Positions 2,970-14,492 of a stretch of 64,000 nt of DNA are shown here, one piece after another; positions within the stretch are counted from its first letter, which is position 1; each line of letters opens with the position of its first letter. The translations under genes and the position numbers were made by a program. Below the pieces are notes generated by a model. It searched no databases and had not been told where the DNA came from. It was given only the letters and a program-made list of their open reading frames with translations. The stretch is from a virus (lineage: Duplodnaviria > Caudoviricetes): positions 32,001 to 96,000 of IMG/VR virus record IMGVR_UViG_3300037249_000709; one strand, 5' to 3'.

Positions 2970-3836
2970 TTATAAATTTATTTTGCTCCACCGTTTTTTA
3001 TCCCAATACTTCCATTCGATATGTCCGGACATTATTCTGACTTCCACATCTTCTATCTTGTCAAATTGTAGAATATAATCCCTATATATTTGTTTGGTGT
3101 CATTCGGGATATTATATATGCCTGCCCACCTATCAAGTGTGTGGTCAATTTGCTCTATCGACCACTCGACATCGGACAATGCTGCTTGTCGCTCAAATTC
3201 TTTTTCTATTTCATCATATTTAGCTTTTACTTCCTCTGCTGTTTTGCACAAGTCACGGAATTGGACAGTTAAATATGTTGGGTGGTATTTGCCGTTATAG
3301 TTTCTAATAATACGCCACCCCTTATGTTTATCAATCTCGGTTTCAAATCTGCCGTAATCGTTTTCTTGAACTTTAACCAAGATACCATTCTCTATAGCTT
3401 TTCTGATAATTTCTTCCGTTAATGTTCCATTGACACGCAGCACATTTTTATTCTCGTCAAACGGTTCAAATGTTATGTGCATTAACTCGGTGTTGTACGT
3501 CCAACCCTTTGGAAGTTTCTGCCATCGTGTTGGGGTTTCAAACTCATTAGCTGGTACTCCCTCAATAATTCGACATTCTTTATAGTCGTATAGTTGTACG
3601 GTCGTTTGACCACTATAATGTGCTATAACCTCACCAAAGCAAAGATGATATCCACCACCCAAAGGTATTGATGAACCCGAAGGCGAATAATTTGAAAGCC
3701 AAAACACAAAATTACCTATCGGAAATGATTCGCATTGTTTATTGCAGTGGCGAGGGCATAATGTCCAATTCCAATTTTCCGTATCTTCTCGTATAGTTTC
3801 CGGAGTTACTATTGGGGTATATTCAGCCATATTCAA
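2970..3836 (-). CDS. hypothetical protein
   Basis: 288-aa ORF, GAGG RBS. Confidence 0.7.
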   Translation of the reverse strand: MNMAEYTPIVTPETIREDTENWNWTLCPRHCNKQCESFPIGNFVFWLSNYSPSGSSIPLGGGYHLCFGEVIAHYSGQTTVQLYDYKECRIIEGVPANEFETPTRWQKLPKGWTYNTELMHITFEPFDENKNVLRVNGTLTEEIIRKAIENGILVKVQENDYGRFETEIDKHKGWRIIRNYNGKYHPTYLTVQFRDLCKTAEEVKAKYDEIEKEFERQAALSDVEWSIEQIDHTLDRWAGIYNIPNDTKQIYRDYILQFDKIEDVEVRIMSGHIEWKYWDKKRWSKINL

Positions 3837-4791: not shown

Positions 4792-5029
4792 TAGGACGTT
4801 TTCTCACTTCTTGATAGAGTGCAATAATCGACCGTTGATAAACCTTTTCGGTCATATCCCCCGTGTGCTGTTTCATAAAGCCCGCATATTCACTATTGCA
4901 ATGCTTGCAATTATGTATATAAACTGGATAACCATATCCATTTATATCCTCAACTGTGTTTTCGGGAACATTCTCAAATGTTTCTTGAAATCCACAATTT
5001 GGACAATAAAAATAGAACATTATTTGCAC
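4781..5029 (-). CDS. zinc-ribbon protein
   Basis: CPNC ... CKHC. Confidence 0.6.
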   Translation of the reverse strand: MQIMFYFYCPNCGFQETFENVPENTVEDINGYGYPVYIHNCKHCNSEYAGFMKQHTGDMTEKVYQRSIIALYQEVRKRPNEN

Positions 5030-5030
5030 C

Positions 5031-5810
5031 TCACTCTATTCTTTTTATTTCTTGATATATAACATTGTGCTTTTTATATATGCCATACTCGTTTTTGTGT
5101 AAGTGACCGCTCCACCACTCTGAATATTGCAGTCCATTTTCAATTAACTTGTCAAAGTAATCTCCAAGACTATCCGAATCGTAGAAACCGAACCATTTGC
5201 AAACTTCTTTGTTCGGGCAATGTGTCAGAACATAATCCACTCTATACCCGACCTTTTCTAATTCGCTAATCCCTCTTTGCATTTCTTCCTCGCTCGGAAG
5301 TTCCTCTTTCCACCACGAGATGCCATCAATTCTTAATAGCTCTCCGCTGCGCGTTCTCTTATTGTAATCCCTTGCCAAGTCTTTGAGCGATTTATAATCT
5401 GATGGTTTTAATATTCCGTCTTTAATGTCGTGGCTACTTGCACCGCCCATAGCAAAGAACTTTTTACCCTCAAAATCAAAGATATATCCACGCATTAGAT
5501 GATAGATGTTATCACGAATTTTATGAGCTTTGCCACCGTGAAAATCTACGATAGGAAATTCATCGGTGTAATACCTTGAATGATTCTCGTGATTGCCGTC
5601 TATATAACAGAGAGTAAAAGGTTTATCATTAAGCCAACCGAGCCAATAGTTTTCTTCCGACATATCCATCTTCTCGTTAAACCATACACCACCAAAATCT
5701 CCGAGAATAATTACAATATCATCTTTGGTCAATCCTTTTTGCTCTGGAAACCTTTTTGTTGTAAATCTTCCAAAATCAGCGTGTGTATCTCCCGTTATAT
5801 AGATAGCCAT
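5031..5810 (-). CDS. calcineurin-like metallophosphoesterase
   Basis: GDTH, GDFG, GNHE, THC, GHLH motifs. Confidence 0.9.
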   Translation of the reverse strand: MAIYITGDTHADFGRFTTKRFPEQKGLTKDDIVIILGDFGGVWFNEKMDMSEENYWLGWLNDKPFTLCYIDGNHENHSRYYTDEFPIVDFHGGKAHKIRDNIYHLMRGYIFDFEGKKFFAMGGASSHDIKDGILKPSDYKSLKDLARDYNKRTRSGELLRIDGISWWKEELPSEEEMQRGISELEKVGYRVDYVLTHCPNKEVCKWFGFYDSDSLGDYFDKLIENGLQYSEWWSGHLHKNEYGIYKKHNVIYQEIKRIE

Positions 5811-5818
5811 TGTTTACC

Positions 5819-6508
5819 TCACTTCTTATCTGTAGCTCTTTTGATTGCCTCCGCAAGCACATCAATTAGCTTTTCTGTTTCGGCAGCTTCTCGTCTTGCC
5901 TGCCGTCTTGCTCTCTTTTCTGCCAACTTCTTTGCTCTCTGCTTCTCTGCTTCGTCAGCTCTACGAGCTTCATCTTCCCATTCTCTATTTTCTTTCATTA
6001 CCTTCATAGCGTGACGAATAACAGAGTTGTAAACCTTTGTGCCGCTTACCGAATCACTAACAGACATTAGCTTCTTTGTGATACAAATAGAAATTCCTGT
6101 TTCAAGAGAATACGTATCTTCGTCGCTTAGTATAGCCTTCTCGGTTGTTCCATCTGCAAAATCAACCATAACAACCTTCGGCTCGTCCGTGTTAGGCTTA
6201 TTTACAACTCTAACATCTTCAATATTTGGCATTAGGTAAGCATAATAACCATATGCATCTCTTATTTTAATACTATCGTCACCATAGCGAACATTACTCT
6301 TTTTCTCATTGTTATCATAACCAATAGCTGGTGTTCTTGGTTGTAATGAGGTTATGTTTGGAATAAAATCTCCGACGTAAGATATCCCATAATCATGTTT
6401 CCTAATCGCCTTAATCCAATTAGCTTCGATTTCCTTTTTAATTTCCTCGTTGTTTTTGTAATCACACATTTTAAATCTCCCTTTATTATATTTGTTTTTT
6501 TTGCACAA
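5819..6508 (-). CDS. hypothetical phage protein
   Basis: 229-aa ORF with coiled-coil C-terminus; start may be downstream at MCDYK. Confidence 0.65.
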   Translation of the reverse strand: MCKKNKYNKGRFKMCDYKNNEEIKKEIEANWIKAIRKHDYGISYVGDFIPNITSLQPRTPAIGYDNNEKKSNVRYGDDSIKIRDAYGYYAYLMPNIEDVRVVNKPNTDEPKVVMVDFADGTTEKAILSDEDTYSLETGISICITKKLMSVSDSVSGTKVYNSVIRHAMKVMKENREWEDEARRADEAEKQRAKKLAEKRARRQARREAAETEKLIDVLAEAIKRATDKK

Positions 6509-6539
6509 TACCTTTTAATTATTTAAGGCTTTGTGCATA

Positions 6540-6621
6540 TGGTGAGGCTGGTGGGACTTGAACCCACAACGCTTACGCAACGGGTTTTGAGACCGCCCTA
6601 TCTGCCAATTCCAGCACAACC
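6540..6621 (-). tRNA. tRNA-Leu(CAA), 3' part; interrupted at acceptor positions 3-4 by an IS607-type element
   Basis: GGTTGTGCTGGAATTGGCAGA...CTCAAAA...GTTCAAGTCCCACCAGCCTCACCA; the original 5' GAGG is at 8099-8102. Confidence 0.85.
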
Positions 6622-6790
6622 GTTACTGAAAACTTATAAAAAGTTATAAAGCAAAAACTTTTATGTTCCATTCCTTATTCAACGTGTCCATTTTTGATAT
6701 GACAAGCCATTATCTACTCATGTTTGGTATAACACTCCGAAGGCGTAAATTCCCGACTAACGTATCGGTACACATTAACAGCACTTGTTT
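6622..6790 (-). ncRNA. predicted TnpB omegaRNA scaffold (guide = adjacent tRNA-Leu sequence)
   Basis: non-coding right end downstream of tnpB, where TnpB omegaRNAs are encoded. Confidence 0.6.
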
Positions 6791-6793
6791 TAG

Positions 6794-7954
6794 CTATGCT
6801 GTCAATCCATAATTCATTAAGTTGACACTTGCCTGAAAATCTCTATCAATCGTTAGTCCGCATTCTGAACAATGATAAATTCTGTCAGATAGTTTCAAAT
6901 CGTTTTTGATATTTCCACAACAGGAACACATTTTACTTGATGGATAGTATCTATCTGCTATCACAAGCTCAATGTTGTGCCAATGACACTTGTATTCTAT
7001 CTGTCTGTAAAATTCATAAAAACATTGTTCCTGAACCACTCTTGACAAGTATTTATTTTTCATCATACCGGTTACATTCAAATCTTCTAAAACAATAAAC
7101 TTTGGCTTTCGGTTTATGATTTCGGAAGTGACAGAATGTAAATAGTTATGACGAATATTTGTTAGTCTGTGATTTGCTTTTAAAAGATTTCTTTCACTTT
7201 TTACAATGTTGCGTGTTTTACAGAAACAACCTTCTTCCTTGTTTTTTAAGTATTTTTTAGATACTCTGCGTTGCAACCTACGCTGTTTCTTCTTTATTTT
7301 TCTAATCTTTTCAGTTTTGTTAATATTCGGATAGACATTACCATCAGAACAAATTGCTAAATCTTTGATGCCAATATCAATTCCTATTCCTTGATTTGTT
7401 GGCTTTTCTTGTGATTCTTCACAATCAATTCCAACGGAAATCCACCAATTTAAGCCATCAAAAGTGATTCGTGGATTGGAATATTTTACATTAACGGGAA
7501 TCCTATTAGACTCTGCCAATTTTACATAATTGAATTTCTGCTTGTTCTTCTTTCGGCTTGTTGTCAGCTTTTCTAACTTTACATGAGTAGAAGTAAAACT
7601 GATTTTGGCAGTATCAGCATAAAAAGATGGTCTGGATTTTCTTTTGCTCTTGAATTTCGGAAATCCTGCAATACCTCTAAAAAAGTTTTGATATGCTGCG
7701 CAAGCATCTTTGATGGCTTGTTTTGTAATGTTATTGCTATAATCATTTAGCCATGTATATTTTGACTGTTTTTTCAGTTCTGTGAAAATTCTGCGAAGTT
7801 CGTAATGGGAAATAAACGAATTTTCGGCTTCGTGATTTGCTTTTTCATAGCCTAATGCCCAATTATAGGCAAATCTTGCTGCCCCCACACATTCAAACAA
7901 CTTTGTTTTCTGTTTGTTGTTTGGAAGGAGCATTACTTTGATGGTCTTAATCAT
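6794..7954 (-). CDS. tnpB: RNA-guided endonuclease TnpB
   Basis: RuvC GIDIG / VLEDL / DRD, CSCC-CSEC zinc finger, N-terminal ARFAYNWAL. Confidence 0.95.
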   Translation of the reverse strand: MIKTIKVMLLPNNKQKTKLFECVGAARFAYNWALGYEKANHEAENSFISHYELRRIFTELKKQSKYTWLNDYSNNITKQAIKDACAAYQNFFRGIAGFPKFKSKRKSRPSFYADTAKISFTSTHVKLEKLTTSRKKNKQKFNYVKLAESNRIPVNVKYSNPRITFDGLNWWISVGIDCEESQEKPTNQGIGIDIGIKDLAICSDGNVYPNINKTEKIRKIKKKQRRLQRRVSKKYLKNKEEGCFCKTRNIVKSERNLLKANHRLTNIRHNYLHSVTSEIINRKPKFIVLEDLNVTGMMKNKYLSRVVQEQCFYEFYRQIEYKCHWHNIELVIADRYYPSSKMCSCCGNIKNDLKLSDRIYHCSECGLTIDRDFQASVNLMNYGLTA

Positions 7955-8106
7955 TTTCTGTAAGTTCCTTTATCATTTTTTTACTTTATTCGCACGCTAT
8001 AATAGCAATAACCATTTACACTTTTATGATGTGGTCTTAACTTGCTGGATTTATCCCATTATTACAATATTTTATAGGAATGTTCTAACTATTAAAACCC
8101 TCATAG

Positions 8107-8178
8107 TAACCGGTACGGGACTCGAACCCGCGTCTCCGCCTTGAAAGGGCGATGTCTTAGCCTCTTGACCAACCGGTC
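8107..8178 (-). tRNA. tRNA-Glu(TTC)
   Basis: cloverleaf, loop CTTTCAA, GTTCGAGTC. Confidence 0.92.
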
Positions 8179-8183
8179 ATAAG

Positions 8184-8257
8184 TGGGAAGTATGAGAATT
8201 GAACTCATTCCGACAGTGCCACAAACTGCCGTGCTAAACCATTACACTAACAACCCC
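8184..8257 (-). tRNA. tRNA-His(GTG) with G-1, A73 and two U.U acceptor mismatches
   Basis: loop TTGTGGC; acceptor GGGTTGT/ACTTCCC. Confidence 0.8.
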
Positions 8258-8264
8258 GTATGAG

Positions 8265-8337
8265 CCTGAGTGGTGAGACTCGAACTCACGGCATCTTGCT
8301 CCCAAAGCAAGCATTCTACCAACTGAATTACACCCAG
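8265..8337 (-). tRNA. tRNA-Pro(TGG)
   Basis: cloverleaf, loop TTTGGGA. Confidence 0.9.
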
Positions 8338-8426
8338 ATGTTGCCTTGCGACCAACAAGACATATTTTTTTCATTCGCGGACTCACATCACAAGTCAATT
8401 CGATTGCCGCAAAGGTCGATGTTCAG

Positions 8427-8857: not shown

Positions 8858-8941
8858 TGCCGGCGAAGGGACTTGAACCCTCACGAGTATTTCATCGACG
8901 GATTTTAAGTCCGTTGTGTCTGCCAATTCCACCACACCGAC
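8858..8941 (-). tRNA. tRNA-Leu(TAA)
   Basis: loop CTTAAAA, long variable arm. Confidence 0.93.
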
Positions 8942-9076
8942 ATAAAGAGAACTCAGCTTTACCTCGCCCTTAACGACCATTCTCTTGTTACGGCTAATAC
9001 CGTACTGCCGACTGCCATACTCGCAGCTTTACTACTTCTAATCTTCCCTATTCAAGAGTAGCATTGAATAGCATAT

Positions 9077-13712: not shown

Positions 13713-14492
13713 TTAATTTTCTTCTATATAAATAAGATTGTCAATATATTTACGCCCTTCCCCTTGAAAAATTGGTATCTCGTCATCTATGCTCCAATGG
13801 GGGCGACTACCATCTTCCTCTACTTTCTTTACACAACAGCTTCCCCTTTTATATTTTGTTGCATAACTCTCCCAATCAACGCCGATTGCTGATAGCATTT
13901 CTTTTACTTCTTTGCACGACTTGTTCTGCATATCTCTATGTGAGAAATATACATTACCCACCATATTGATAGAATTTCTCTCTGCATCCTTTTGTCGCCA
14001 CAAAATAACATTGCAGACTTCTTCTTTGGGAACATTGAACACACGGGCATCAAACATTCCGCCACGCTCCCACGCTCTCTGATACGCCAATGTTAGCACG
14101 GGAGATGTGATTTCAAGCTGGTCAAGATTTTTGCGATAAAATTTGTTAAACGCCATTGTAGCCATACTTGCCGCCACACTTGCACACTTCTGGATATTAT
14201 AATCAAACCATCCACAAGTATTTAGTTTGTTATAATCCACAAGCACAAGTGTGATTTCATCAGATTGCGTATAGCCCAACACAACACCCTGTATGTTCTC
14301 GCAAAGATACTTCATTGTGTCCTGCATAGTATCGGACATCAGCTTGTCGAATGGCTTTACAAAACCTCTTGTGAAAGTGTGGAACGCTTTTCCGTCAAGT
14401 CGGATAATAACTGGCGTTCTTTGCGTAAGATAGTTTCGCGTAACTTTTTCGTAACGTTTCATTCTGTCTCCGAACTCATCTTTTCTACACAT
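13713..14492 (-). CDS. tRNA(His) guanylyltransferase Thg1-like protein (3'-5' polymerase)
   Basis: RMKRYE, IIRLDGKAFHTFT, YTQSDEI, FDAR, WRQKDAERNSI motifs. Confidence 0.95.
   Translation of the reverse strand: MCRKDEFGDRMKRYEKVTRNYLTQRTPVIIRLDGKAFHTFTRGFVKPFDKLMSDTMQDTMKYLCENIQGVVLGYTQSDEITLVLVDYNKLNTCGWFDYNIQKCASVAASMATMAFNKFYRKNLDQLEITSPVLTLAYQRAWERGGMFDARVFNVPKEEVCNVILWRQKDAERNSINMVGNVYFSHRDMQNKSCKEVKEMLSAIGVDWESYATKYKRGSCCVKKVEEDGSRPHWSIDDEIPIFQGEGRKYIDNLIYIEEN

Follow-up and report, generated by a model that had tools for sequence, protein, structure and literature searches.

How does a transposon-borne gene for an RNA-guided nuclease come to lie in the acceptor stem of a phage tRNA gene, and at what would its guide RNA then be aimed? 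These questions are raised by a locus in a window of 64,000 nucleotides (nt), the whole stretch of DNA analysed here, which is bases 32001-96000 of a 166,766-bp IMG/VR virus record (IMGVR_UViG_3300037249_000709; Duplodnaviria, Caudoviricetes) rated complete by CheckV; the public sequencing runs containing this phage are mostly bovine or other animal gut metagenomes, and no RNA run is listed among them. Our reading, to which we assign a probability of about 0.72, is that an IS607 insertion sequence (IS) that lacks tnpA and carries TnpB and its guide RNA sits in the tRNA-Leu(CAA) gene, and that its guide is aimed at the empty allele of sibling phages, where cleavage would lead to homing of the element or to destruction of a rival genome.

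All parts of the locus lie on the minus strand. tRNA-Glu(TTC) (8106-8178; ARAGORN, and 63 bits with the Rfam tRNA model) is the gene directly upstream of the insertion, and is followed by TAT, by GAGG (8102-8099) and then by the element start G/TTTTAATAG (here and below a slash marks a junction). The element, non-autonomous and of the IS607 family, measures 1479 bp (6620-8098) and is present once in the 166.8-kb phage record; owing to the GG repeat its boundaries can slide by up to 2 nt (6620-8098 = 6621-8099 = 6622-8100). In the direction of transcription it is made up of: i) a non-coding left end of 144 nt (7955-8098), with a remnant of the tnpA 3' end that overlaps the tnpB start, as delimited by comparison with the left ends of two relatives (L022 and L021) and with the intact tnpA of a third (L004); ii) tnpB (6794-7954; 386 amino acids, P0001); and iii) the scaffold of a guide RNA (omega RNA or right-end element RNA, reRNA; 6620-6790, the 5' limit being approximate), whose 3' terminus, which is the right end of the element, reads ...CAGTAACGG and finishes at 6620. 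The first 20 nt past this conserved end (6600-6619; TTGTGCTGGAATTGGCAGAT) are the predicted guide.

Downstream of the element lies a disrupted tRNA-Leu(CAA) (6540-6623), with body and encoded CCA intact (3' terminus ...CAGCCTC-A-CCA, reaching 6540) and with positions 1-2 supplied as AC by the element right end. The filled gene begins ACGGTTG, as the original prediction (made from the sequence alone) had stated: A and C at positions 1 and 2 face C72 and U71 and are mismatched. Such a gene is not recognised by ARAGORN, which calls eleven tRNAs in the window and none among them at 6540-6623, and it scores 29.5 bits, barely at threshold, with the Rfam tRNA model. In-silico deletion of 6620-8098 joins GAGG to TTGTGCTGG and yields an acceptor stem of the full 7 bp (GAGGTTG with CAGCCTC), and ARAGORN calls tRNA-Leu(CAA) in the reconstructed sequence. 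GAGG (8102-8099) made up the first four nt of the original tRNA-Leu(CAA), and the GG within it is the IS607 crossover core: comparison of the filled site, GAGG/G...ACGG/TTG, with the empty site, GAGG/TTG, shows a GG at each junction and a precise donor joint, with the target site not duplicated. The spacing of 4 nt that had been claimed between tRNA-Glu and the restored tRNA-Leu holds for the tRNA-Glu end given by Rfam and shrinks to 3 nt for that given by ARAGORN.

Is the empty site a product of the reconstruction, or does it exist? Searching with the protein encoded just downstream of the locus (5819-6472), we found homologues 72-81% identical on six contigs from three related phage lineages (L014-L018 and L020). 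In all six the element is missing at exactly this point and an intact tRNA-Leu(CAA) begins 3 nt after tRNA-Glu. The junction of L014, L015, L017 and L018, ...CCGGTTACTATGAGGTTGTGCTGGAATTGGCAGAC..., is letter for letter the window minus 6620-8098 over the bases shown, the last base excepted, and the predicted rejoined site, TATGAGG/TTGTGCTGGAATTGGCAGAC, is identical to the empty alleles, ...CCGGTTACTATGAGG/TTGTGCTGGAATTGGCAGAC, of five of the six contigs (L014-L018). The tRNA layout of L016 is the same as that of these four contigs, and in L020 the junction reads TACGAGGCTGTGTTGG.... The claim that removal of the element restores the tRNA-Leu acceptor stem was staked on the junction of empty alleles in related genomes, and it is borne out twice, by ARAGORN on the reconstruction and by these natural alleles, whose junction is the one foreseen. 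Because natural empty alleles with exactly the predicted junction exist, the observation is not due to chance, and the insertion is confirmed as real. The flanking gene had no relatives among GenBank phages or in IMG/VR, and neither the guide nor the 3' half of the tRNA had an exact match in IMG/VR.

A far closer strain (contig ERZ1029110), whose flanking protein is identical at 215 of 216 residues, has 1420 nt between a methylase gene fragment and the flanking gene, compared with 2908 nt in the window. The difference equals the size of the element, which suggests, as judged from gene spacing only, that this strain lacks it.

Among the sibling tRNA-Leu(CAA) alleles, paired changes distinguish the acceptor and the anticodon stems: one allele has G1-U72 (L017:478-561), and another has C5-G68 plus a recoded anticodon stem (L020:1091-1174).

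To which family does the element belong? TnpB carries the Pfam domains PF12323, PF01385 and PF07282 (HTH_OrfB_IS605, OrfB_IS605 and the Cas12f1-like zinc ribbon), and its best match in PDB is the TnpB of ISFba1 (8iaz; E=3.4e-69, residues 2-380 aligned), to which it is ~45% identical as read off the printed alignment. The residues of the RuvC triad (D193/E290/D372) fall on the catalytic positions of ISFba1 TnpB, and the protein has two CxxC pairs; the alignment with 8iaz and the motif positions bear out the claim of an intact D/E/D triad. Directly downstream of tnpB, on the same strand, lies a RAGATH-18 RNA (RF03064; 73.1 bits, the gathering score being 44.9, E=2.9e-14; 6743-6671), whose core ends 50 nt before the right end; the layout resembles that of the ISFba1 reRNA (PMC11061315). 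The closest annotated relative, which is also the closest full-length one, is found in Enterocloster phage CB457P1 (68% protein identity), where a TnpA of 221 amino acids with a MerR helix-turn-helix (HTH) and a resolvase domain (L004:888-1553), the IS607 serine transposase, is encoded upstream of tnpB. A serine-recombinase TnpA of this build (MerR-like HTH plus resolvase) is not found in the window copy: tnpA is cut to ~8 terminal codons (ATGATAAAGGAACTTACAGAAAATGAT) like the 3' end of the intact CB457P1 gene, a comparison that agrees with the earlier description of a mere remnant. With only these codons left, the element is unable to transpose unaided. Twort-like Staphylococcus phages have copies that retain a MerR-type tnpA fragment. 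The TnpB family is very large (>7,900 proteins at E<=1e-60), and relatives 84-87% identical occur in an SPbeta-like phage contig and in a bacterial chromosome.

The domain names (OrfB_IS605) and the loss of the transposase gene from the window copy would also fit an IS200/IS605 element, moved by a Y1 transposase through single-strand peel-and-paste. We give this assignment next to no weight, since the closest full-length relative has the serine recombinase with its MerR HTH and no Y1 (HUH) TnpA, guide RNAs of the RAGATH-18 type are confined to the IS607 clade of TnpBs (PMC11061315), and the GG at both junctions and the G-rich flank are not of the TTGAT/TTAC type. The RAGATH-18 RNA, the 8iaz match, the MerR-resolvase TnpA of the relative, the GG junctions and a shared right end ...AACGG all support IS607, as originally proposed. 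The element is an ordinary non-autonomous member of the large IS607 TnpB family; its insertion site is the unusual part.

Are its ends defined apart from the tRNA? The right-end terminal motif ...TTTTCAGTAACGG (6620-6632) is identical in five relatives (L004, L005, L006, L021 and L022) and similar in L007 (...GACAACGG) and L002 (...GTAACGG), and the sequence past the GG is unrelated in each. Those sharing this right end include Enterocloster phage CB457P1, human-gut phage contigs, an SPbeta-like phage contig and a bacterial chromosome, and the motif is present in at least 112 viral contigs. Since the right-end boundary is set by homology, the ends are defined independently of the tRNA argument. 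On the left, four elements start with (G/A)TTTTAA directly after TGAGG (window, L021 and L126) or AGAGG (L022), and four more are flanked by AGAGG (L007, L136 and L038) or GGAGG (L062), so that NGAGG flanks the left end in eight independent elements including the window, and the right end is AACGG in all; to the search for left ends, a strict regular expression added one element and short-BLAST a few. One of these relatives (L007; Staphylococcus virus vB_SurM-PSU6, Twort-like) has its IS607 element at the very end of a protease gene (1640-1670 and 3290-3320; GAAGAGG/TGTATATTTAA), where the first 11 nt of the left end repeat the 11 nt past the right end, so that the protease gene keeps its natural last codons and stop.

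These ends follow rules published for an IS607 element of C. botulinum, which recombines at a strict GG core with a precise donor joint and has its target-adjacent motif (TAM) abutting the left end; its right end copies the TAM except at position -3 (TCGG versus TGGG), so that the occupied site is uncut (10.1101/2023.11.20.567912). The corresponding pair in the window is ACGG at the right end and GAGG in the TAM; by analogy, the replacement of GAGG by ACGG would give self/non-self discrimination.

By the same rules the guide is predicted to be the 20 nt past the right end, UUGUGCUGGAAUUGGCAGAU, which is tRNA-Leu(CAA) positions 5-24 (the end of the acceptor 5' strand and the D arm), and the putative TAM is the TGAGG flanking the left end (8099-8103; TATGAGG/TTGTGC in the empty alleles). 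A guide drawn from tRNA-Leu and a TAM of about (T)GAGG had been predicted from the window, and both gain support from the IS607 rules and from the NGAGG at the equivalent place in seven relatives. Against the alleles of L014, L015, L017 and L018 the guide matches at 19 of 20 positions, position 20 alone differing, and TGAGG adjoins the match; this supports the further claim that the target is the IS-free tRNA-Leu allele of sibling phages. ISFba1 TnpB tolerates mismatches poorly at guide positions 1-13 (PMC11061315), so these four alleles should be cut. On the other hand, the L020 allele, preceded by CGAGG, matches at 17 of 20 positions, with mismatches at 1, 6 and 20, and by the same analogy should be poorly cut or resistant. 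The L020 changes lie within the guide seed, as expected if escape from cutting was selected.

Could the guide be aimed elsewhere? In 185,579 species-representative genomes no tRNA gene has GAGG plus the first 15 guide bases; the string occurs 11 times in these genomes, 0 times in a tRNA, with ~4 occurrences expected by chance (an estimate from the size of the collection). The lack of any such tRNA gene in the representative genomes points to the phage allele as the target. A scan of metagenome contigs of the Joint Genome Institute (JGI) with the guide gave six chance matches only, all outside tRNAs. As a self-target we considered, and rejected, the tRNA-Leu(UAA) of the phage (8857-8941): the guide matches it at 17 of 20 positions but GTCG, not GAGG, precedes, and by its sequence this gene is probably safe from the nuclease. 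Viral contigs gave 111 related right ends, with 62 distinct guides, and none of these ends adjoins a tRNA gene; therefore the targeting of tRNA genes is not habitual in this subfamily.

In the mechanism that we propose, the element would have recombined at the GG of GAGG, the first four bases of tRNA-Leu(CAA), and would thereby have split off acceptor positions 1-2. Transcription from the right end into the flanking DNA would give a guide RNA whose guide is a sense copy of tRNA-Leu nt 5-24, and GAGG together with this guide would direct TnpB to the uninterrupted tRNA-Glu/tRNA-Leu junction of sibling phages; the phage's own genome would likewise be cut should the element be lost, while the occupied site, with ACGG there instead of GAGG, would be spared. 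A cut in a co-infecting sibling would either be repaired from the occupied copy, so that the element homes, or destroy the rival genome.

Does the phage population show traces of homing? Four runs from other metagenome studies were compared: the left junction is spanned by contigs of every run, and the right junction by contigs of two (X4 and X5). None of the contigs of these runs skips the element, with the limit that contigs drop rare variants and minority empty alleles would escape. Divergence from the window within the element is 0-0.7% (0/263 and 1/739 in X3; 3/791, 0/432 and 0/236 in X4; 11/1611 in X5), is intermediate in the nearest flank (4/352 in X4; 16/762 in X5) and reaches 4-9% at 0.3-1.5 kb away (80/1250 and 16/232 in X4; 56/616 and 24/300 in X5; 16/371 in X3). 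Such a gradient is what co-conversion by homing predicts; since conserved tRNA genes alongside the element add to the trough, it is consistent with homing without proving it. In a further sample (a contig of ERZ27256908) the gene order is that of window positions 5000-7954 and TnpB (P0080) is identical except for E290D.

The X3, X4 and X5 contigs also skip ~364-399 nt at 8500-8865/8900 and 132 nt at 8938-9071; a tRNA-like gene and a GC-richer non-coding stretch located there are therefore presence/absence polymorphisms.

Alternatively, the element may be a dead relic, an immobile leftover inherited vertically, with a TnpB that no longer cuts or serves another role and a tRNA-Leu(CAA) that has become a pseudogene. 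The absence of tnpA, which precludes self-transposition, and the change at a catalytic residue in one sample would fit this, and vertical descent would also place the element at the same site in all close strains, as is seen. It would leave unexplained why the open reading frame, the RuvC triad, the zinc ribbon, the RAGATH-18 scaffold and the right-end motif are all intact. Moreover, vertical descent without selection predicts equal divergence in the element and at a distance, not 0-0.7% against 4-9%, and the near-identical strain probably lacks the element. We thus consider a relic unlikely, though the likeliest of the alternatives weighed here.

Several points weigh against an active, homing element: i) the TAMs measured for 23 RAGATH-18-type TnpBs are AGGAG or GAGGG (PMC11061315), not literally NGAGG, so that the TAM register could be off by one; ii) the TAM-reading residues N121/N122 of ISFba1 TnpB are T123/H124 here; iii) a sigma-70 scan found no recognisable promoter in the left end, matches being at the level of shuffled sequence, and an element without a promoter of its own must rely on read-through from the tRNA operon; iv) E290D strikes the RuvC-II catalytic glutamate in an otherwise identical copy, and may reflect relaxed selection on cleavage, a weakened nuclease or a first step of decay; v) purifying selection, or the strong conservation of the tRNA genes next to it, could account for part of the low divergence seen in the element; and vi) the near-identical strain is taken to lack the element on spacing only.

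What would become of the interrupted tRNA? A cut by RNase P at the tRNA 5' end (6624/6623) would fall four bases before the guide and would sever the guide from its scaffold; guide RNA and tRNA would therefore exclude each other on one transcript, as follows from the anatomy. Minimum-free-energy folding of the tRNA and of the guide-RNA/tRNA transcript gave z-scores near +0.9. The interrupted tRNA is probably impaired, and probably dispensable because the phage also carries tRNA-Leu(UAA), which can read the same codon by wobble; loss of tRNA-Leu(CAA) may cost little.

The insertion could be silent if the tRNA were restored at the RNA level, and two routes can be weighed. Group I introns are known to reside in phage tRNA genes, and the element might be an IStron that splices out of the tRNA precursor. 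IS607-group I intron fusions do exist, with splice sites that coincide with the transposon ends (10.1101/2023.11.20.567912). However, the Rfam group I intron model (Intron_gpI) has no match in 6300-8400 at E<=10, the left end is only 144 nt long and mostly homologous to the intron-less left ends of relatives, and the last base of the 5' exon would be G, where U is usual. Splicing is accordingly very improbable.

The second route, a functional analogue of IStron splicing, is repair of the tRNA 5' end: RNase P would cut the mismatched precursor where true pairing starts, before G3, and a Thg1-like protein would rebuild A2 and G1 by templated 3'-5' addition on U71 and C72. A Thg1-like protein gene (13713-14492, minus strand; PF04446, E=8.3e-31) does lie 5.6 kb upstream in the same tRNA region, and the body of the filled tRNA is no more decayed than those of its intact siblings, its 31:39 mismatch being found also in L017 and L020. 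Thg1-like proteins can rebuild tRNAs truncated at the 5' end, adding nucleotides with the 3' strand as template (PMC4820378). On the other hand, an orthologue lies at the same place in an empty-site relative (L025:5406-6185) whose tRNA-Leu(CAA) is intact; in this IS-free relative, as in the IS-bearing phage, the gene stands at the head of the tRNA region, and no specific co-occurrence of the enzyme with a mismatched tRNA was found in the comparison with L025. The gene was thus not acquired or kept for repair of tRNA-Leu. Furthermore, miscleavage by RNase P has to be assumed, and recent insertion would explain the undecayed tRNA equally well. We know of no bacterial or phage enzyme that removes mismatched 5' nucleotides, nor of any 5'-trimming step in such a setting. 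5' editing by Thg1-like proteins takes place in the mitochondria of Acanthamoeba and Dictyostelium. The likeness to that editing and to repair by bacterial Thg1-like proteins (PMC4820378) is that mismatches affect only the first acceptor positions and that a Thg1-family gene is close by; the difference is that nothing links gene and mismatch here, the gene being present also where the tRNA is intact. Were repair to operate, a tRNA gene could harbour a transposon with no intron involved, and a single transcript would be shared out between a DNA-cutting guide RNA and a repaired tRNA; we regard this as improbable, less so than splicing.

How does the tnpA-less TnpB/guide element in tRNA-Leu(CAA) compare with known systems? 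ISFba1 TnpB, the reference enzyme of the RAGATH-18-guided IS607 clade, is a demonstrated RNA-guided DNase with a G-rich TAM, and the RAGATH-18 motif of ISFba1 occupies positions -51 to -122 from the guide (PMC11061315). The two proteins (8iaz; Ren et al. 2024, PMC11061315) are alike in length (386 amino acids here, 387 there) and align end to end, both have the RAGATH-18 core 50 nt before the guide, a scaffold wholly downstream of the open reading frame and a G-rich flank, and the lysine that reads the last TAM G is conserved (K78 here). They differ in sequence (~45% identity), in the residues for TAM positions -4 and -5 (T123/H124 here, N121/N122 there) and in the flank itself, a natural NGAGG here compared with a measured AGGAG or GAGGG; in addition, the copy described here sits in a phage tRNA gene and is known from sequence.

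With the IS607 IStron of C. botulinum (Zedaveinyte et al., 10.1101/2023.11.20.567912) the element shares the GG core, a donor joint that consists of the TAM plus the guide-matching target, a right end that resembles the TAM apart from position -3 (ACGG/GAGG here, TCGG/TGGG there), the keeping by TnpB of a copy without tnpA, and two mutually exclusive RNA fates of one transcript. It differs in having no group I intron, so that the competing fate here would be tRNA maturation by RNase P instead of splicing, and in interrupting a tRNA gene instead of a protein gene.

In function, the nearest analogue is SegB of phage T4, as far as PMC2330249 is represented in PMC13565253. SegB and other free-standing homing endonucleases of phage tRNA regions are likewise selfish nuclease genes in a tRNA cluster; when related phages co-infect a cell, SegB cleaves their tRNA region, and its gene is passed on preferentially while its flanks are co-converted (PMC2330249 via PMC13565253). 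According to the same account, recognition is there between protein and DNA and no tRNA gene is interrupted, whereas the specificity here would come from an RNA copy of the tRNA. The likeness extends to one empty-site relative (L014), which has an HNH endonuclease gene in the same tRNA array. That gene (L014:4830-5357; HNH_3/NUMOD4 homing endonuclease) lies between tRNA-Ser(TGA) and tRNA-Leu(TAA) and is absent from the window, and a different, larger TnpB gene lies 5 kb downstream (L014:11625-12699). The tRNA region of these phages gathers selfish nuclease genes.

Our literature searches turned up no report of a TnpB element with a tRNA gene for a guide. In the current view, TnpB elements maintain themselves by cleaving the empty site, into which the element is then copied back; that they could pass in this way from one co-infecting phage to another has been argued mostly from theory (PMC13565253). 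The locus described here offers a natural phage population in which an occupied allele exists together with empty sibling alleles that match the guide at 19 of 20 positions and have the right motif adjoining, with a sibling allele that has seed mismatches and is possibly resistant, and with a pattern of divergence like that left by co-conversion. It also pits the processing of a tRNA by RNase P against the maturation of a guide RNA on one transcript.

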